A DNA stretch of 64,000 bases. Origin: Eledone cirrhosa (taxonomy: Eukaryota). Positions 2,225-58,920 of this stretch are shown here, one piece after another. The position numbers and the translations under genes were made by a program. How positions within the stretch are numbered: position 1 is the stretch's first letter; each line of letters begins with the position of its first letter. The DNA is taken from NCBI GenBank assembly GCA_964016885.1, contig OZ024741.1:206894001-206958000 (forward strand), in the 5' to 3' direction. The notes under the pieces are model-generated. The model did not search any database. It saw only the letters and a list, made by a program, of their open reading frames with translations, and was not told where the DNA came from.

Positions 2225-2898
2225 CCATCAGCATTACCATCACCGGCACCTTCATCAACATCACCGTCAACAACATCACCATCACCATCATCAACGTCAT
2301 CATCATCAACATCACTACCATCAATATCATCACCAAAACATCCCCATGTTCATGATCATGATGATCATCATCATCAGCAGCATCACTATTGTCATCAACA
2401 TACCCATCATCCCCACCACCACCACCATCACAATCATCATTATCATTAATTTAATTACAATTTTAATCATAATAATTATTTATAATTATTCCGAACTTGA
2501 GCGCTTTTTTAGCATAGCAACAAATAAAAGACACCACTACCAATAATAACCACAAACAACAGCTACTACTACTACTACTACTACTACTACTGCTGCTACT
2601 ACTACTACTACTTCTACTGCTGCTGCTACTACTACTACTACTACTACTGCTGCTGCTGCTATTGCTGCTGCTACTAAGGCTACTACTACTGCTGCTACTA
2701 CTACTTCTGTTATAACTACTACTAATACTACTACTGCTGCTGCTGCTACTACTACTACTACTACTAATACTACTGCCGCTGCTACTACTACTACTGCTAC
2801 TAATACTACTGCTGCTGCTACTACTACTACTACTACTAATACTAATACTACTGCTGCTGCTGCTGCTGCTACTACTACTACTAATACTACTGCTGCTG

Positions 2899-2931
<33 letters not shown>

Positions 2932-2943
2932 ATACTACTGCTG

Positions 2944-2984
<41 letters not shown>

Positions 2985-3110
2985 GCTGCTACTGCTGCTG
3001 CTGCTACTACTGCTGCTGCTACTGCTACTACTACTACTACTACTATTACTACTACTACTGCTATTCCTGATGCTGCTGCTGCTGCTACTGCTACTACTAC
3101 TACTACTACA
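2225..3110. repeat. Compound trinucleotide microsatellites: (CAT/CAC)n then (CTA/CTG)n
   Basis: Direct reading; explains the poly-H, poly-M and poly-V/A ORFs. Confidence 0.95.
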
Positions 3111-21521: not shown

Positions 21522-23436
21522 AGATGGGTAGGTGGGTAGATGGGTAGGTGGGTAGATGGGTAGATGGCTAGATGGGTAGATGGGTAGGTGGCTAGATGGG
21601 TAGGTGGGTAGGTGGCTAGATGGGTAGGTGGCTAGATGGGTAGGTGGGTAGGTGGGTAGGTGGTTAGATGGGTAGATGGGTAGGTGGCTAGATGGGTAGG
21701 TGGGTAGGTGGCTAGGTGGCTAGATGGGTATGTGGCTAGATGGGTAGATTGGTAGGTGGGTAGATGGGTAGGTGGGTAGATCGGTAGGTGGCTAGATGGG
21801 TAGATGGGTAGGTGGCTAGATGGGTAGATGGGTAGGTGGGTAGATGGGTAGATGGGTAGGTGGCTAGATGGGTAGATGGGTAGGTGGCTAGATGGGTAGA
21901 TGGATAGGTGGCTAGATGGGTAGATGGGTAGGTGGCTAGATGGGTAGATGGGTAGGTGGCTAGATGGGTAGATGGATAGGTGGCTAGATGCGTAGATGGG
22001 TAGGTGGCTAGATGGGTAGATGTGTAGGTGGGTAGATACGTAGATGGGTAGATGGGTATGTGGCTAGATGGGTAGATTGGTAGGTGGGTAGATGGGTAGG
22101 TGGGTAGATCGGTAGGTGGCTAGATGGGTAGATGTGTAGGTGGCTAGATGGGTAGATGGGTAGGTGGCTAGATGGGTAGATGGGTAGGTGGGTAGATGGG
22201 TAGATGGGTAGGTGGCTAGATGGGTAGATGGATAGGTGGCTAGATGGGTAGATGGGTAGGTGGCTAGATGGGTAGATGGGTAGGTGGCTAGATGGGTAGA
22301 TGGATAGGTGGCTAGATGCGTAGATGGGTAGGTGGGTAGATGGGTAGATGTGTAGGTGGGTAGATACGTAGATGGGTAGGTGGGTAGGTGGCTAGATGGG
22401 TAGATGGGTAGGTGGGTTGATGGGTAGATGGGTAGATGGGTAGGTGGGTAGATGGGTAGATGGGTAGGTGGGTAGGTGGGTAGATGGCTAGATGGGTAGA
22501 TGGGTAGGTGGCTAGATGGGTAGATGGGTAGGTGGGTAGATGGGTAGGTGGGTAGGTGGGTAGATGGCTAGATGGGTAGATGGGTAGGTGGCTAGATGGG
22601 TAGATGGGTAGGTGGCTAGATGGGTAGATGGGTAGGTGGCTAGATGGGTAGATGGGTAGGTGGCTAGATGGGTAGGTGGGTAGGTGGGTAGATGGCTAGA
22701 TGGGTAGATGGGTAGGTGGCTAGATGGGTAGATGGATAGGTGGCTAGATGGGTAGATGGGTAGGTGGCTAGATGGGTAGATGGGTAGGTGGGTGGAAGCG
22801 TAGATGGGTAGGTGGGTAGATGGGTAGATGGATAGGTGGCTAGATGGGTAGATGGGTAGGTGGCTAGATGGGTAGATGGGTAGGTGGGTAGATGCGTAGA
22901 TCGGTAGGTGGCTAGATGGGTAGATGGGTAGGTGGGTAGATGGGTAGATGGGTAGGTGGGTAGATGGCTAGATGGGTAGATGGGTAGGTGGGTAGATCGG
23001 TAGGTGGCTAGATGGGTAGATGGGTAGGTGGGTAGATGGGTAGATGGGTAGGTGGGTAGATGGCTAGATGGGTAGATGGGTAGGTGGGTAGATGGGTAGA
23101 TCGGTAGATCGGTAGGTGGCTAGATGGGTAGGTGGGTAGATGGGTAGATGGGTAGGTGGGTAGATGGCTAGATGGGTAGATAGGTAGGTGGGTAGATGGC
23201 TAGATGGGTAGATGGGTAGGTGGGTAGATGGGTAGATGGGTAGGTGGGTAGATGGGTAGATGGGTAGATCGGTAGGTGGCTAGATGGGTAGATGGGTAGG
23301 TGGGTAGATGGGTAGATGGGTAGGTGGGTAGATGGCTAGATGGGTAGATGGGTAGGTGGGTAGATGGCTAGATGGGTAGATGGGTAGGTGGCTAGATGGG
23401 TAGATGGGTAGGTGGGTAGATGGGTAGGTGGGTAGA
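21522..23436. repeat. 1.9-kb octamer minisatellite (AGATGGGT/AGGTGGGT/AGGTGGCT variants)
   Basis: Direct reading; 8-bp register kept throughout. Confidence 0.97.
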
Positions 23437-24046: not shown

Positions 24047-24271
24047 GCGTGTGTGTGTGTGTGCGTGTGTGTGAATCACTGAAAGAAAATATAGTACTGA
24101 ACACTGAATGTGTTAAGCTTCAAGAAGCGGAACATTTAGTCACAGTCTGGAAGTAGCAAGAGCTCAGCCGTCGGGTTCCCACTTTTTATAATATAGTCAT
24201 ACTCTATTACCCCCAATATCGAGTACTCTGTTGAGTAATGGTCTAACCATTTTCAAACTGGTTCCATACTG

Positions 24272-24432
24272 GTTCTACTTTTGGCACGAGGCCAGCAATT
24301 ATCCCAGTGTATGACTGGTACTTTATTTTATCGACCCTGTAAGGACGAAAGGCAAAGTTAACCTCGGTGGGATTTGAACACAGTCCGTTAAAGGCCGTAA
24401 CTCTCTGCTGCAGAGTATGGCGTCCGACCCCT
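24272..24432 (-). mobile_element. tRNA-derived SINE, head truncated at a TA tract
   Basis: Reverse complement of the family body. Confidence 0.85.
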
Positions 24433-24444
24433 TTATATATATAT

Positions 24445-24921
24445 GAATGTAGGTATAGTATATTTGATAATATACTGTATGTTTATTTTAAAACATTTAG
24501 AAGACCATTCGCTATGAGTTTTAAAGTAGTGACTATGTCACTTATTTAGTCTCGGCAAAAATAAAGGGAAGCAACCGACGGCAGTTTCTTGCTCGTTAGC
24601 GGTTATCAACATTGCATATCCCTTCACTTCCGCCAAGACTTATAGAAGCTGGATTCTTATAGAATTCCACTGATGTTTAAGAATTGATTAAACAGAGTAG
24701 TTGCCGGTCCAGCAAAAATTAGGAATTAGTATCAGTGCTCTGAAATAGCGATGTATGTATGAATGTATGTTTTGTCGAGACGAAGTAAGTGACATAGTCA
24801 CTACTTTAAAACTCATAGCGAATGGTCTTCAAAATGTTTTGAAATAAACATACAGTATATTATTAAATATACTATACATACATTCATACATACATCGCTA
24901 TTTCAGAGCACTGATACTAAT
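24445..24921. mobile_element. Diverged relative of the 311-bp retrozyme: one 316-bp monomer (minus) plus about 150-bp inverted arm, decayed HHR at 24571-24615
   Basis: Shared blocks TGCTCTGAAATAGCGAT, GTTGCCGGTCC, CTGTATGTTTAT, GAAGACC; minus strand TTGATAA..GAAA-CTGCCG-UC-GGTTGC. Confidence 0.85.
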
Positions 24922-25316
24922 ATATATATATATATATATTTAAAGTGAACAGGCTACTAGGAAAAACTATGCAAGATTTGTTGAAATTCGAAGAAAGATT
25001 TATAAACCTATGTACCATAATTGATGATACATCTCATAGTATCAAGATACTTATGTTGCACAACTCCACCGACCACGTTGAGCAAAATTAATCGGTAAGC
25101 TGCCACTTTAACTTTTTGTCACACATATTCACTTTACACAAATGCGAATTAACAAACATAAACATGATACACAGTAGTAGATAGTCGTTTAGCAAATATA
25201 TTCAACAATGTCCATACGCTTTGAATACTTTTTATCTTATGTTAAATCAATGGTATTGGAATAACTTTTAGGTAGACTCACACATTTATATATTATAAAA
25301 TATTCTGACACACAAT

Positions 25317-50911: not shown

Positions 50912-50969
<58 letters not shown>

Positions 50970-51023
50970 GTGAGGTTTTTTTTACAAAATTAAAAAAAAC
51001 GAGATGTCCTACACGAGTGAAAG

Positions 51024-51111
51024 TATAAGGAAAACAGATGAAATCGATAATGCAACTGGAGTCTTTAAAAAAAAAAAGACTCCAGCTGCATTTTCGATTT
51101 CAACTTTTTTC

Positions 51112-51116
<5 letters not shown>
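51024..51116. repeat. Hairpin (about 42-bp arms, oligo-A loop) between TA tracts
   Basis: TGAAATCGATAATGCAACTGGAGTCTTT / AAAGACTCCAGCTGCATTTTCGATTTCA. Confidence 0.8.
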
Positions 51117-51145
<29 letters not shown>

Positions 51146-51149
<4 letters not shown>

Positions 51150-53101
51150 TATAGACATAGAATATTCGAAAATATTCTGTATGTTTATAATAAACATTTT
51201 GAAGACCTAATCGCTATAGAATAGAATACGTCACGTATTACAATTAGATTCTCGATAAAAGCAAGGGAAGTAAATCTACGCGTTTCATTCTTATTAGAAA
51301 TCGTCAGGACTACATATCCAGTGCTTTCATCGAGAATGACACAGCTAGAGACTTATAGAATACTTAGCTGTGTACAGGAACTGGTTTGAAAGAGCGGTTG
51401 CCGGTCCGGCAGAAATTAGAAATTGGAATAAATGCTCTGAAATAGCGATATATATGTGAATATAGACATAGAATATTCGAAAATATTCTGTATGTTTATA
51501 ATAAACATTTTGAAGACCTAATCGCTATAGAATAGAATACGTCACGTATTACAATTAGATTCTCGATAAAAGCAAGGGAAGTAAATCTACGCGTTTCATT
51601 CTTATTAGAAATCGTCAGGACTACATATCCAGTGCTTTCATCGAGAATGACACAGCTAGAGACTTATAGAATACTTAGCTGTGTACAGGAACTGGTTTGA
51701 AAGAGCGGTTGCCGGTCCGGCAGAAATTAGAAATTGGAATAAATGCTCTGAAATAGCGATATATATGTGAATATAGACATAGAATATTCGAAAATATTCT
51801 GTATGTTTATAATAAACATTTTGAAGACCTAATCGCTATAGAATAGAATACGTCACGTATTACAATTAGATTCTCGATAAAAGCAAGGGAAGTAAATCTA
51901 CGCGTTTCATTCTTATTAGAAATCGTCAGGACTACATATCCAGTGCTTTCATCGAGAATGACACAGCTAGAGACTTATAGAATACTTAGCTGTGTACAGG
52001 AACTGGTTTGAAAGAGCGGTTGCCGGTCCGGCAGAAATTAGAAATTGGAATAAATGCTCTGAAATAGCGATATATATGTGAATATAGACATAGAATATTC
52101 GAAAATATTCTGTATGTTTATAATAAACATTTTGAAGACCTAATCGCTATAGAATAGAATACGTCACGTATTACAATTAGATTCTCGATAAAAGCAAGGG
52201 AAGTAAATCTACGCGTTTCATTCTTATTAGAAATCGTCAGGACTACATATCCAGTGCTTTCATCGAGAATGACACAGCTAGAGACTTATAGAATACTTAG
52301 CTGTGTACAGGAACTGGTTTGAAAGAGCGGTTGCCGGTCCGGCAGAAATTAGAAATTGGAATAAATGCTCTGAAATAGCGATATATATGTGAATATAGAC
52401 ATAGAATATTCGAAAATATTCTGTATGTTTATAATAAACATTTTGAAGACCTAATCGCTATAGAATAGAATACGTCACGTATTACAATTAGATTCTCGAT
52501 AAAAGCAAGGGAAGTAAATCTACGCGTTTCATTCTTATTAGAAATCGTCAGGACTACATATCCAGTGCTTTCATCGAGAATGACACAGCTAGAGACTTAT
52601 AGAATACTTAGCTGTGTACAGGAACTGGTTTGAAAGAGCGGTTGCCGGTCCGGCAGAAATTAGAAATTGGAATAAATGCTCTGAAATAGCGATATATATG
52701 TGAATATAGACATAGAATATTCGAAAATATTCTGTATGTTTATAATAAACATTTTGAAGACCTAATCGCTATAGAATAGAATACGTCACGTATTACAATT
52801 AGATTCTCGATAAAAGCAAGGGAAGTAAATCTACGCGTTTCATTCTTATTAGAAATCGTCAGGACTACATATCCAGTGCTTTCATCGAGAATGACACAGC
52901 TAGAGACTTATAGAATACTTAGCTGTGTACAGGAACTGGTTTGAAAGAGCGGTTGCCGGTCCGGCAGAAATTAGAAATTGGAATAAATGCTCTGAAATAG
53001 CGATATATATGTGAATATAGACATAGAATATTCGAAAATATTCTGTATGTTTATAATAAACATTTTGAAGACCTAATCGCTATAGAATAGAATACGTCAC
53101 G
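51146..53101 (-). repeat. Retrozyme-like array, left arm: 6.3 copies of the 311-bp monomer, 6 HHRs on minus strand
   Basis: Period 311 (GAATATAGAC at 51147, 51458, 51769); TCGTCAG at 51301+311n, n=0-5. Confidence 0.95.
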
Positions 53102-56100
53102 GACCGGCAACCGCTCTTTCAAACCAGTTCCTGTACACAGCTAAGTATTCTATAAGTCTCTAGCTGTGTCATTCTCGATGAAAGCACTGGATATGTAGTC
53201 CTGACGATTTCTAATAAGAATGAAACGCGTAGATTTACTTCCCTTGCTTTTATCGAGAATCTAATTGTAATACGTGACGTATTCTATTCTATAGCGATTA
53301 GGTCTTCAAAATGTTTATTATAAACATACAGAATATTTTCGAATATTCTATGTCTATATTCACATATATATCGCTATTTCAGAGCATTTATTCCAATTTC
53401 TAATTTCTGCCGGACCGGCAACCGCTCTTTCAAACCAGTTCCTGTACACAGCTAAGTATTCTATAAGTCTCTAGCTGTGTCATTCTCGATGAAAGCACTG
53501 GATATGTAGTCCTGACGATTTCTAATAAGAATGAAACGCGTAGATTTACTTCCCTTGCTTTTATCGAGAATCTAATTGTAATACGTGACGTATTCTATTC
53601 TATAGCGATTAGGTCTTCAAAATGTTTATTATAAACATACAGAATATTTTCGAATATTCTATGTCTATATTCACATATATATCGCTATTTCAGAGCATTT
53701 ATTCCAATTTCTAATTTCTGCCGGACCGGCAACCGCTCTTTCAAACCAGTTCCTGTACACAGCTAAGTATTCTATAAGTCTCTAGCTGTGTCATTCTCGA
53801 TGAAAGCACTGGATATGTAGTCCTGACGATTTCTAATAAGAATGAAACGCGTAGATTTACTTCCCTTGCTTTTATCGAGAATCTAATTGTAATACGTGAC
53901 GTATTCTATTCTATAGCGATTAGGTCTTCAAAATGTTTATTATAAACATACAGAATATTTTCGAATATTCTATGTCTATATTCACATATATATCGCTATT
54001 TCAGAGCATTTATTCCAATTTCTAATTTCTGCCGGACCGGCAACCGCTCTTTCAAACCAGTTCCTGTACACAGCTAAGTATTCTATAAGTCTCTAGCTGT
54101 GTCATTCTCGATGAAAGCACTGGATATGTAGTCCTGACGATTTCTAATAAGAATGAAACGCGTAGATTTACTTCCCTTGCTTCTATCGAGAATCTAATTG
54201 TAATACGTGACGTATTCTATTCTATAGCGATTAGGTCTTCAAAATGTTTATTATAAACATACAGAATATTTTCGAATATTCTATGTCTATATTCACATAT
54301 ATATCGCTATTTCAGAGCATTTATTCCAATTTCTAATTTCTGCCGGACCGGCAACCGCTCTTTCAAACCAGTTCCTGTACACAGCTAAGTATTCTATAAG
54401 TCTCTAGCTGTGTCATTCTCGATGAAAGCACTGGATATGTAGTCCTGACGATTTCTAATAAGAATGAAACGCGTAGATTTACTTCCCTTGCTTTTATCGA
54501 GAATCTAATTGTAATACGTGACGTATTCTATTCTATAGCGATTAGGTCTTCAAAATGTTTATTATAAACATACAGAATATTTTCGAATATTCTATGTCTA
54601 TATTCACATATATATCGCTATTTCAGAGCATTTATTCCAATTTCTAATTTCTGCCGGACCGGCAACCGCTCTTTCAAACCAGTTCCTGTACACAGCTAAG
54701 TATTCTATAAGTCTCTAGCTGTGTCATTCTCGATGAAAGCACTGGATATGTAGTCCTGACGATTTCTAATAAGAATGAAACGCGTAGATTTACTTCCCTT
54801 GCTTTTATCGAGAATCTAATTGTAATACGTGACGTATTCTATTCTATAGCGATTAGGTCTTCAAAATGTTTATTATAAACATACAGAATATTTTCGAATA
54901 TTCTATGTCTATATTCACATATATATCGCTATTTCAGAGCATTTATTCCAATTTCTAATTTCTGCCGGACCGGCAACCGCTCTTTCAAACCAGTTCCTGT
55001 ACACAGCTAAGTATTCTATAAGTCTCTAGCTGTGTCATTCTCGATGAAAGCACTGGATATGTAGTCCTGACGATTTCTAATAAGAATGAAACGCGTAGAT
55101 TTACTTCCCTTGCTTTTATCGAGAATCTAATTGTAATACGTGACGTATTCTATTCTATAGCGATTAGGTCTTCAAAATGTTTATTATAAACATACAGAAT
55201 ATTTTCGAATATTCTATGTCTATATTCACATATATATCGCTATTTCAGAGCATTTATTCCAATTTCTAATTTCTGCCGGACCGGCAACCGCTCTTTCAAA
55301 CCAGTTCCTGTACACAGCTAAGTATTCTATAAGTCTCTAGCTGTGTCATTCTCGATGAAAGCACTGGATATGTAGTCCTGACGATTTCTAATAAGAATGA
55401 AACGCGTAGATTTACTTCCCTTGCTTTTATCGAGAATCTAATTGTAATACGTGACGTATTCTATTCTATAGCGATTAGGTCTTCAAAATGTTTATTATAA
55501 ACATACAGAATATTTTCGAATATTCTATGTCTATATTCACATATATATCGCTATTTCAGAGCATTTATTCCAATTTCTAATTTCTGCCGGACCGGCAACC
55601 GCTCTTTCAAACCAGTTCCTGTACACAGCTAAGTATTCTATAAGTCTCTAGCTGTGTCATTCTCGATGAAAGCACTGGATATGTAGTCCTGACGATTTCT
55701 AATAAGAATGAAACGCGTAGATTTACTTCCCTTGCTTCTATCGAGAATCTAATTGTAATACGTGACGTATTCTATTCTATAGCGATTAGGTCTTCAAAAT
55801 GTTTATTATAAACATACAGAATATTTTCGAATATTCTATGTCTATATTCACATATATATCGCTATTTCAGAGCATTTATTCCAATTTCTAATTTCTGCCG
55901 GACCGGCAACCGCTCTTTCAAACCAGTTCCTGTACACAGCTAAGTATTCTATAAGTCTCTAGCTGTGTCATTCTCGATGAAAGCACTGGATATGTAGTCC
56001 TGACGATTTCTAATAAGAATGAAACGCGTAGATTTACTTCCCTTGCTTTTATCGAGAATCTAATTGTAATACGTGACGTATTCTATTCTATAGCGATTAG

Positions 56101-58678
56101 GTCTTCAAAATGTTTATTATAAACATACAGAATATTTTCGAATATTCTATGTCTATATTCACATATATATCGCTATTTCAGAGCATTTATTCCAATTTCT
56201 AATTTCTGCCGGACCGGCAACCGCTCTTTCAAACCAGTTCCTGTACACAGCTAAGTATTCTATAAGTCTCTAGCTGTGTCATTCTCGATGAAAGCACTGG
56301 ATATGTAGTCCTGACGATTTCTAATAAGAATGAAACGCGTAGATTTACTTCCCTTGCTTTTATCGAGAATCTAATTGTAATACGTGACGTATTCTATTCT
56401 ATAGCGATTAGGTCTTCAAAATGTTTATTATAAACATACAGAATATTTTCGAATATTCTATGTCTATATTCACATATATATCGCTATTTCAGAGCATTTA
56501 TTCCAATTTCTAATTTCTGCCGGACCGGCAACCGCTCTTTCAAACCAGTTCCTGTACACAGCTAAGTATTCTATAAGTCTCTAGCTGTGTCATTCTCGAT
56601 GAAAGCACTGGATATGTAGTCCTGACGATTTCTAATAAGAATGAAACGCGTAGATTTACTTCCCTTGCTTTTATCGAGAATCTAATTGTAATACGTGACG
56701 TATTCTATTCTATAGCGATTAGGTCTTCAAAATGTTTATTATAAACATACAGAATATTTTCGAATATTCTATGTCTATATTCACATATATATCGCTATTT
56801 CAGAGCATTTATTCCAATTTCTAATTTCTGCCGGACCGGCAACCGCTCTTTCAAACCAGTTCCTGTACACAGCTAAGTATTCTATAAGTCTCTAGCTGTG
56901 TCATTCTCGATGAAAGCACTGGATATGTAGTCCTGACGATTTCTAATAAGAATGAAACGCGTAGATTTACTTCCCTTGCTTTTATCGAGAATCTAATTGT
57001 AATACGTGACGTATTCTATTCTATAGCGATTAGGTCTTCAAAATGTTTATTATAAACATACAGAATATTTTCGAATATTCTATGTCTATATTCACATATA
57101 TATCGCTATTTCAGAGCATTTATTCCAATTTCTAATTTCTGCCGGACCGGCAACCGCTCTTTCAAACCAGTTCCTGTACACAGCTAAGTATTCTATAAGT
57201 CTCTAGCTGTGTCATTCTCGATGAAAGCACTGGATATGTAGTCCTGACGATTTCTAATAAGAATGAAACGCGTAGATTTACTTCCCTTGCTTTTATCGAG
57301 AATCTAATTGTAATACGTGACGTATTCTATTCTATAGCGATTAGGTCTTCAAAATGTTTATTATAAACATACAGAATATTTTCGAATATTCTATGTCTAT
57401 ATTCACATATATATCACTATTTCAGAGCATTTATTCCAATTTCTAATTTCTGCCGGACCGGCAACCGCTCTTTCAAACCAGTTCCTGTACACAGCTAAGT
57501 ATTCTATAAGTCTCTAGCTGTGTCATTCTCGATGAAAGCACTGGATATGTAGTCCTGACGATTTCTAATAAGAATGAAACGCGTAGATTTACTTCCCTTG
57601 CTTTTATCGAGAATCTAATTGTAATACGTGACGTATTCTATTCTATAGCGATTAGGTCTTCAAAATGTTTATTATAAACATACAGAATATTTTCGAATAT
57701 TCTATGTCTATATTCACATATATATCGCTATTTCAGAGCATTTATTCCAATTTCTAATTTCTGCCGGACCGGCAACCGCTCTTTCAAACCAGTTCCTGTA
57801 CACAGCTAAGTATTCTATAAGTCTCTAGCTGTGTCATTCTCGATGAAAGCACTGGATATGTAGTCCTGACGATTTCTAATAAGAATGAAACGCGTAGATT
57901 TACTTCCCTTGCTTTTATCGAGAATCTAATTGTAATACGTGACGTATTCTATTCTATAGCGATTAGGTCTTCAAAATGTTTATTATAAACATACAGAATA
58001 TTTTCGAATATTCTATGTCTATATTCACATATATATCGCTATTTCAGAGCATTTATTCCAATTTCTAATTTCTGCCGGACCGGCAACCGCTCTTTCAAAC
58101 CAGTTCCTGTACACAGCTAAGTATTCTATAAGTCTCTAGCTGTGTCATTCTCGATGAAAGCACTGGATATGTAGTCCTGACGATTTCTAATAAGAATGAA
58201 ACGCGTAGATTTACTTCCCTTGCTTTTATCGAGAATCTAATTGTAATACGTGACGTATTCTATTCTATAGCGATTAGGTCTTCAAAATGTTTATTATAAA
58301 CATACAGAATATTTTCGAATATTCTATGTCTATATTCACATATATATCGCTATTTCAGAGCATTTATTCCAATTTCTAATTTCTGCCGGACCGGCAACCG
58401 CTCTTTCAAACCAGTTCCTGTACACAGCTAAGTATTCTATAAGTCTCTAGCTGTGTCATTCTCGATGAAAGCACTGGATATGTAGTCCTGACGATTTCTA
58501 ATAAGAATGAAACGCGTAGATTTACTTCCCTTGCTTTTATCGAGAATCTAATTGTAATACGTGACGTATTCTATTCTATAGCGATTAGGTCTTCAAAATG
58601 TTTATTATAAACATACAGAATATTTTCGAATATTCTATGTCTATATTCACATATATATCGCTATTTCAGAGCATTTAT

Positions 58679-58684
<6 letters not shown>
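53100..58684 (+). repeat. Retrozyme-like array, right arm: about 18 copies of the 311-bp monomer, 18 HHRs on plus strand
   Basis: Reverse complement of the left arm; CTGACGA at 53201+311n, n=0-17 (last 58488); ends in (TA)n. Confidence 0.95.
53195..53238 (+). ncRNA. Minimal type I hammerhead ribozyme of the 311-bp monomer (representative copy)
   Basis: GTAGTC-CUGACGA-TTTCT(AATA)AGAAT-GAAA-CGCG-UA-GATTTAC; palindromic stem III ACGCGT; predicted GUA cut after 53231. Confidence 0.9.
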
Positions 58685-58720
<36 letters not shown>

Positions 58721-58725
<5 letters not shown>

Positions 58726-58916
58726 AACGAGTAGGACCCCGACGGCTGAGCTCAAGCCGTTTCGACGGCTAATTCTGGAATTACAGAATTAGCCGTCGAC
58801 ACGGCTTGAGCTCAGCCGTCGGGGTCCTACTCGTTCCTATTACCCACTCTACTACCCTAAGTATTGAGTACGTTGGTGCGTTATGGTCCACCTGGTTCCT
58901 TACCACATTTCCTTCG

Positions 58917-58920
<4 letters not shown>
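58721..58920. mobile_element. Family A fold-back insertion in (TA)n
   Basis: About 57-bp arms symmetric around the loop GAATTA (near 58778-58783); near-identical to 3528-3684. Confidence 0.85.

Follow-up and report, generated by a model that had tools for sequence, protein, structure and literature searches.

Two outer end sites shared by a diverged inverted insertion and a long hammerhead-bearing array in Eledone cirrhosa, in the manner of Penelope-like elements

Two loci in a 64,000-nucleotide stretch of the Eledone cirrhosa genome (GCA_964016885.1, contig OZ024741.1, positions 206,894,001 to 206,958,000, forward strand; hereafter the window) raise the question of how a short, diverged insertion at 24445–24921 came to share both termini and an inverted layout with a far larger array. 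We refer to the 311-bp unit of the array as family A and to the 316-bp unit of the insertion as family B; the two end sites are named E1 (after TTCA) and E2 (after AAT), and lie 35 nt apart in both families, matching the "few tens of nt" of an earlier note on this DNA.

The left arm of the insertion (24445..24769, minus strand) comprises 325 nt, or 1.03 family-B units, with its 3′ end at E1 abutting a (TA)n target tract (24434..24444); the right arm (24770..24921, plus strand) comprises 152 nt, or 0.48 units, with its 3′ end at E2 abutting a second (TA)n tract (24922..24940; both tracts, read from the sequence, are without strand). These values agree with the earlier estimates of about 1 and 0.5 units. 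The arms meet 5′ to 5′ at 24769..24770 (no strand) with an overlap of about 1 nt, and the 35 nt between E1 and E2 at the end of the right arm (24887..24921, plus strand) constitute a one-sided tail, like the tail of Penelope-like elements (PLEs; PMC8557442, PMC11167929). The comparison array consists of a left arm of 6.3 units of 311 bp (51146..53101, minus strand) ending at E1, and a right arm of 18.0 units (53100..58684, plus strand) ending at E2.

Comparison of the two loci reproduced the likeness first noticed: the left end (TA)n-TGAAT matches that at 51146, with its T at 24444, one base before the 24445 originally given, and the right end ...ACTAAT-(AT)n at 24921 aligns with ...TCCAAT-(AT)n at 58684. 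The 316-bp period is seen in TGAAT at 24444 and again at 24760, the divergence from the array unit amounts to 71% identity over 338 nt (E=2e-32, two-sequence BLAST), and the junctions differ, lying at unit phases 307/201 in the insertion and 222/49 in the array. The minus-then-plus order of arms had also been read correctly, but it is uninformative as evidence of likeness, because every diverging pair reads so on either strand; sharing E1 on the left is close to a coin toss, as 31 two-armed A loci gave 20 E1-left, 9 E2-left and 2 other. The informative feature of both loci is that their outer ends are one E1 and one E2.

We plotted end positions on the monomer across genomic copies, the check that the earlier note had proposed, and observed two sharp peaks. 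The A sample comprised the 18 best-scoring loci, including the window array, and 19 loci sampled in order of position along the first 36 Mb of contig 1; two of the 19 that were not family A, inner extra segments in two loci, and non-visible ends were left out. Here 64/65 visible arm ends fell at or near E1 or E2, in two windows that were chosen after inspecting the data and cover 41 of 311 positions, with 57/65 in 11 positions. The B sample was reduced from 60 loci to 47 by dropping 13 repeats of one place or insertion, and arms below 80% identity or shorter than 40 nt were discarded; 39/66 ends lay in strict windows (15 of 316 positions) and 58/66 in wider ones. Since the first B query demanded the full unit, the 18 loci known only via a mid-unit query were counted separately, giving 8/22 ends in the strict and 17/22 in the wide windows.

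The two sites were used in combination: E1 was paired with E2 at 29/30 two-armed A loci with both ends readable (the remaining one joined E2 to another site; E1+E1 and E2+E2 were each 0), and at 14/18 two-armed B loci by the wide windows (four with one other end, none with two alike). Head-to-head pairs made up 31/33 assessable A loci and 18/47 B loci, while 28/47 B loci had one visible arm and 1/66 B arms reached two units, the 24445–24921 insertion itself carrying one hammerhead. Family B alone thus does not demand a circular template; its short, often one-armed copies may reflect either decay of arrays and palindromes with age or less processive copying. Nearly all E1 and E2 ends of both families adjoin (TA)n. 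TA-like sequence of 2–8 nt adjoins the sites themselves, and at E1 a C before the AU run was kept in 7/31 ends and absent in 21, which suggests short primer pairing.

The inner 5′ ends of A arms behaved differently from the outer ones. Their 64 phases were compatible with a uniform distribution (KS p=0.32), with 0/64 at positions 178–184 around the predicted cut site and a marginal pile-up at phases 124–154 (14/64). Arm lengths fitted an exponential without a cut-off (63 arms, mean 1.56 kb, maximum 5.6 kb, p=0.39), and among 29 junctions, 21 overlapped by 1–16 nt, 4 were blunt and 4 had a gap. Extra short segments at the junctions of loci L062 and L138 alternate between the 5′ ends of both arms—which suggests repeated template switches during joining.

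Alignment and pair counts revealed one predicted type I hammerhead motif in each of the two units; an Rfam search of the window gave no match at gathering level. In the insertion it occupies 24565..24624 (minus strand), with a U3-A8 core (U3 at 24609) and a predicted cut after 24577. Substitutions affect the stem I base and also stems II and III of this copy, which is probably decayed and inactive. Every unit of the 53100..58684 arm carries the canonical C3-G8 motif (plus strand; e.g. core 53512, predicted cut after 53542). When 19 B copies and A were aligned, 92% of cells were paired vs 38–51% in slid controls, two-sided changes occurred in 5/19 pairs, stem II among them, and the core pair was U3-A8 in 19/19 B copies and C3-G8 in A. 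CpG decay accounts for the GGCC/AGCT changes seen in loop 3 of B, which were therefore not counted as covariation; whole-unit circular MFE folds did not form the hammerhead. The U3-A8 core is a published hammerhead variant of PLE terminal repeats (PMC4209133), and three autonomous PLE families of the same genome have U3-A8 cores like that of B. The motifs described there show the same core covariation as B, but are mostly single minimal motifs, whereas the B core sits inside a tandem unit whose relatives carry C3-G8. The ends lie far from the hammerhead cut, as previously stated: 131/166 nt (A) and 133/168 nt (B) 3′ of the predicted site.

The strongest likeness between A and B was found in the block around the ends, where a small hairpin is predicted about 10 nt 3′ of each of the two sites. 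In the insertion, the hairpin at 24737..24749 (minus strand) begins about 10 nt 3′ of E1 and has the same sequence in A and B; that at 24701..24715 (minus strand) begins about 9 nt 3′ of E2, and occurs in the left arm because this arm exceeds one unit. No covarying pair was found in either. Conservation of the hairpins across 18 rows is circular, because 16/18 rows were picked by a pattern holding both words; the independent support is the A-vs-B identity.

Genome-wide, the B unit search returned copies at 88–92% identity (40 scored of 3,668 candidates), and the A unit search returned arrays 100% identical on many contigs, so that, judged by sequence identity, B appears to be the older family and A the young one. 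A pattern common to both had 16,293 exact matches in the genome (0 for the reversed control), equivalent to about 5 Mb if each represents one unit; the version without A's usual base had 240, and the 30 of these loci that were read included further subfamilies with periods of about 315–320 and the same ends. Given its 16,293 matches, family A is therefore an active source of long palindromes. The unit is non-coding, with no LTR, PBS, PPT or ORF (PBS and PPT judged by eye), and in tblastn with 7 PLE proteins over 156 loci, no PLE-like coding match lay inside a unit or ran on from one. At both window loci tblastn likewise found no PLE coding match, and the insertion lacks an RT + GIY-YIG ORF. 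At locus L050:1856-2481, a B copy is followed by about 17 tandem copies of the 36 nt immediately 5′ of E1, forming a minisatellite that arose at the putative initiation site. Sequencing runs of 18 organisms in 17 studies contain most words of the A unit; in two such runs compared with window positions 53411–54343, each yielded one 340-nt contig (the 310-nt unit + 30) at depth 26–34, both sharing the same four changes and one deletion. The presence of the unit in these runs is more plausibly explained by trace carry-over of so abundant a repeat than by horizontal transfer. No RNA run was among the listed runs that contain the unit, which carries no weight for or against its expression.

We then asked how many templates contributed to one insertion. 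Over 62.8 kb of best-scoring A arms, units were near-invariant and changes mostly singletons. The 16 position-sampled A loci with a readable haplotype carried 11 haplotypes, and diagnostic sites stayed constant through up to 15 units, save for scattered single-unit changes; no single-unit variant was common to different A loci. The two arms agreed in haplotype at 12/12 informative A loci (chance 4e-12 if arms drew independently), and B arms within a locus differed by 6.0% on average vs 9.5% between loci (15 loci, Wilcoxon p=0.004). That each insertion carries a single haplotype suggests a single RNA template, likely circular and monomeric: to yield many long, uniform arrays that differ in haplotype, the repeat must pass through a one-unit bottleneck and then expand, and this is what copying around a circle of one unit would directly produce. 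Concordance of arms is also expected from one dominant homogeneous source per cell or period, or from arm-to-arm conversion. Some private variants are repeated, which a monomer circle does not predict: the plus arm of the window array has the same T>C change near 54183 and 55738, in two units five apart, and another A arm has a 1-nt deletion in two units. The repeated T>C may stem from duplication of five units at a later time, from an error that recurred, or from a slip in the assembly. The A haplotype changes avoid invariant hammerhead core positions. Those that define haplotypes (L138-L156) lie mostly in or beside the ribozyme, at unit positions 129–183 with the rest of the unit near-invariant, and at tolerated positions (N7, stem II base, loop 2 and stem I bulge).

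The genome is rich in RT + GIY-YIG elements (RVT_1 + GIY-YIG ORFs). One young autonomous family has two end sites about 68 nt apart in (TA)n, indicating that internal ends are also a property of autonomous PLEs here; its upstream (5′) repeat runs beyond E2 into the ORF. At L182 and L187, inverted pairs of 5′-truncated RT+GIY-YIG ORFs show the same head-to-head layout in autonomous elements. A search of nine families, from 150 scored of 10,595 GIY-YIG candidates plus one further family, found none whose terminal repeat is homologous to A or B. Where B-like matches occurred near PLEs, they proved to be separate insertions and so do not mark a partner; a young PLE family adjoining one A arm was rejected too, as its terminal repeats show no homology to either family. 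Partner searches with a tail-plus-hairpin pattern excluding A (30 loci read of 240 matches) found none, and a hairpin-plus-ATG pattern (30 read of 57 matches) gave a longest frame of 36 codons. A young C-rich PLE family (L257:940-1075, L278-L297) has 2,556 candidates, with top copies 99% alike and a hammerhead-like motif in which CCGAAGA replaces CUGANGA; only its age makes it a candidate partner of A, and the two share no sequence homology.

The surroundings of both loci were also inspected. The left flank of the big array (50964–51115) is a small inverted 3′-end copy of the young autonomous RT+GIY-YIG family whose (TA)n ends were described above (88–91% identity to L177); its two ends are likewise separated by about 68 nt, and the array lies inside its TA tract. 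The right flank (58724–58917) is a palindromic mini-element too, extended on one side by about 75 nt and present near other PLE loci as well; a diverged piece of it occurs at 24160–24243. Directly left of the 24445–24921 insertion lies a very high-copy short repeat (24268–24400; summed contig depth over one million), probably a SINE; the window further contains a G-rich 24-bp minisatellite of 80 copies (21525–23435) and a (CTA)182 tract (2563–3109).

Fixed outer ends of this kind have precedents. The insertion unit of EN+ PLEs is an inverted 5′-truncated copy with a one-sided 30–40-bp tail, and (TA)n target bias has been described for PLEs (PMC8557442 and PMC3846280). The loci studied here resemble EN+ PLE insertions in their head-to-head arms, the 35-nt tail on one side only, the variable inner ends, the (TA)n target without discernible TSD, and the hammerhead upstream of the ends; unlike EN+ PLEs, A and B lack an ORF and both arms are tandem 310–320-bp units, up to 18 in A. 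For Poseidon_Ac, an anole PLE, in vitro work identified two internal RT starts flanking the tail and showed cutting and extension of both strands, and a dimer was predicted; hammerhead cleavage was not required for insertion, and the start site was non-homologous to the target (PMC11167929). A and B are similar in having two starts flanking the tail, internal on the RNA and downstream of the hammerhead, in an AT-rich target, the starts here being putative; Poseidon_Ac differs in being autonomous, in having been assayed in vitro on linear RNA, and in its start being non-homologous to the target. Judged from the sequences, the two ends correspond to the known PLE tail, which here sits on non-coding ribozyme units and has been retained through about 30% divergence; the two-end layout is a published PLE feature, not new.

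We consider that the insertion was likely produced when a Penelope-like RT/GIY-YIG enzyme copied a single RNA, probably a monomeric circle, starting from both ends of a cut in the TA tract. Two-site initiation of the PLE type is the part we hold with high confidence; a circular monomer as template is reasonably likely. The reading of the fixed ends as RT start sites, made in the earlier note, gains support by extension of the in vitro result on the anole PLE (PMC11167929), and so does a circular or multimeric template, with the haplotype data favouring the circle; of the proposed internal priming, initiation internal on the RNA stands, while the cut target DNA most likely serves as primer. In the proposed course of events, tandem transcripts would first cleave themselves and then be ligated into circles. 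A PLE protein, which is likely dimeric, would attach to the conserved E1/E2 block, possibly via the two small hairpins, and the enzyme would cut both (TA)n strands, each 3′-OH being extended, one from E1 and one from E2, with the help of 2–8 nt of AU pairing. Both cDNAs would run round the template, past the hammerhead cut site, to a random stop, and their far ends would be joined by short microhomology.

Alternatives differ in where the tandem repetition comes from. With the PLE two-site start retained, homogeneous source arrays could be transcribed into a long multimer that stays linear and uncleaved and itself serves as template, without a circle. This accounts for the fixed ends, the arm concordance and the passage through the cut site, is in line with uncleaved RNA as the main in vitro substrate (PMC11167929), and fits private variants repeated in two arms as copying of a pre-existing array. 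We nevertheless regard it as unlikely: copying a linear multimer can only shorten arrays, at least 11 separate long homogeneous sources would be needed for 16 random loci, a new mutation in one unit would yield mosaic daughters whereas no single-unit variant is common to loci, and arm lengths show no cut-off. PLE-type insertions could instead start short and lengthen later through unequal exchange between DNA copies, while conversion keeps the two arms similar. Local tandem amplification is favoured for retrozyme satellites in bioRxiv 10.64898/2026.07.22.740005, the variant repeated five units apart resembles a DNA-level duplication, and short B copies could be unamplified; however, arms are longest in the youngest family and shortest in the older B, the opposite of what growth over time would give, each arm of most young loci spans several units, and single-unit variants are nearly all singletons rather than runs, making such growth quite improbable.

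The inverted arm might also arise from self-priming or fold-back of one cDNA or of an antisense template, or from L1-style twin priming at a chance internal site, rather than from a second programmed start. Self-priming has been proposed for head-to-head PLE copies (PMC3846280), and junction microhomology together with the extra switched segments in two A loci shows template switching; fold-back, however, predicts a second arm starting at or near the 5′ phase of the first, and the phases are mostly unrelated. In L1-type twin priming the arms are non-overlapping and one outer end is unfixed, whereas the loci studied here have overlapping arms and two fixed outer ends, so that we give this group of explanations very little chance. 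Least credible of all, to the point of near dismissal, is that the likeness of the two loci reflects a segmental duplication or that the layout is an assembly artefact. None of the listed contig pieces bridges the 24769/24770 junction, and such structures trouble short-read assemblies (PMC8557442). Against these readings, 31/33 assessable A loci are two-armed with varied junctions, eight public-run contigs end in TA repeat just beyond E1, from a run that may be the assembly's own sample, the arms of the 24445–24921 insertion differ at 7/150 sites, and haplotypes are locus-specific. Segmental duplication, which the earlier note had named as fatal to its model, was ruled out: over 3 kb the flanks of the two window loci showed no left-left and no right-right homology, the only match between them being an 84-nt dispersed repeat at non-matching positions.

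The units themselves recall animal non-LTR retrozymes, described as tandem hammerhead units with circular RNA, probably moved by PLEs (PMC7229834; bioRxiv 10.64898/2026.07.22.740005). A retrozyme unit has about 150–400 nt and one type I hammerhead, as do the 316- and 311-bp units, and a tandem array with at least two hammerheads was seen in A. Shared features include non-coding, AT-rich tandem units of about 300 bp, a single type I hammerhead with a short palindromic helix III, co-occurring PLEs, and circle-templated tandem cDNA, which has been proposed for retrozymes (PMC7229834, PMC4209133); circular RNA has been demonstrated for retrozymes, and is a putative stage of A and B. The word "inverted" is absent from the available sections of PMC7229834; in the main text of bioRxiv 10.64898/2026.07.22.740005 it occurs only in a reference title, and "tail" and "haplotype" are absent. 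A two-end rule or haplotype concordance in retrozyme arrays was unreported in the literature searched (few subscription papers), and circle-templated retrotransposition of animal retrozymes by PLE enzymes is proposed there, with no demonstration in the literature searched. Non-autonomous Chlamys elements such as MRC1 form multicopy head-to-tail insertions though their clade is mostly without canonical hammerheads; they differ in being green algal, in belonging to an N-terminal EN clade, and in a 3′ end like that of their autonomous partners (PMC8557442), whereas A and B have no 3′-similar autonomous partner among the PLE families examined.

The insertions combine a PLE tail and inversion on retrozyme-type units with one haplotype per insertion, and the 24445–24921 insertion demonstrates that the two-end rule holds despite about 30% divergence and a changed ribozyme core. 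The circle proposal is now exactly predictive: it calls for two cDNA starts at named positions on a 311/316-nt circle, and a short conserved block should suffice for mobilisation. It is about as plausible as its negation that a PLE RT dimer copies one 310–320-nt circle up to 18 times per arm, by twin rolling-circle reverse transcription. By the same evenly balanced judgement, the dimer may grip the circle at the twin-hairpin block and start two cDNAs 35 nt apart, using both ends of a cut (TA)n; and the initiation block may, with equal chances for and against, have been kept in at least three subfamilies as the ribozyme switched between C3-G8 and U3-A8. If the twin rolling-circle reading is true, the block would constitute a portable, sequence-defined signal for the insertion of circular RNA into a genome.
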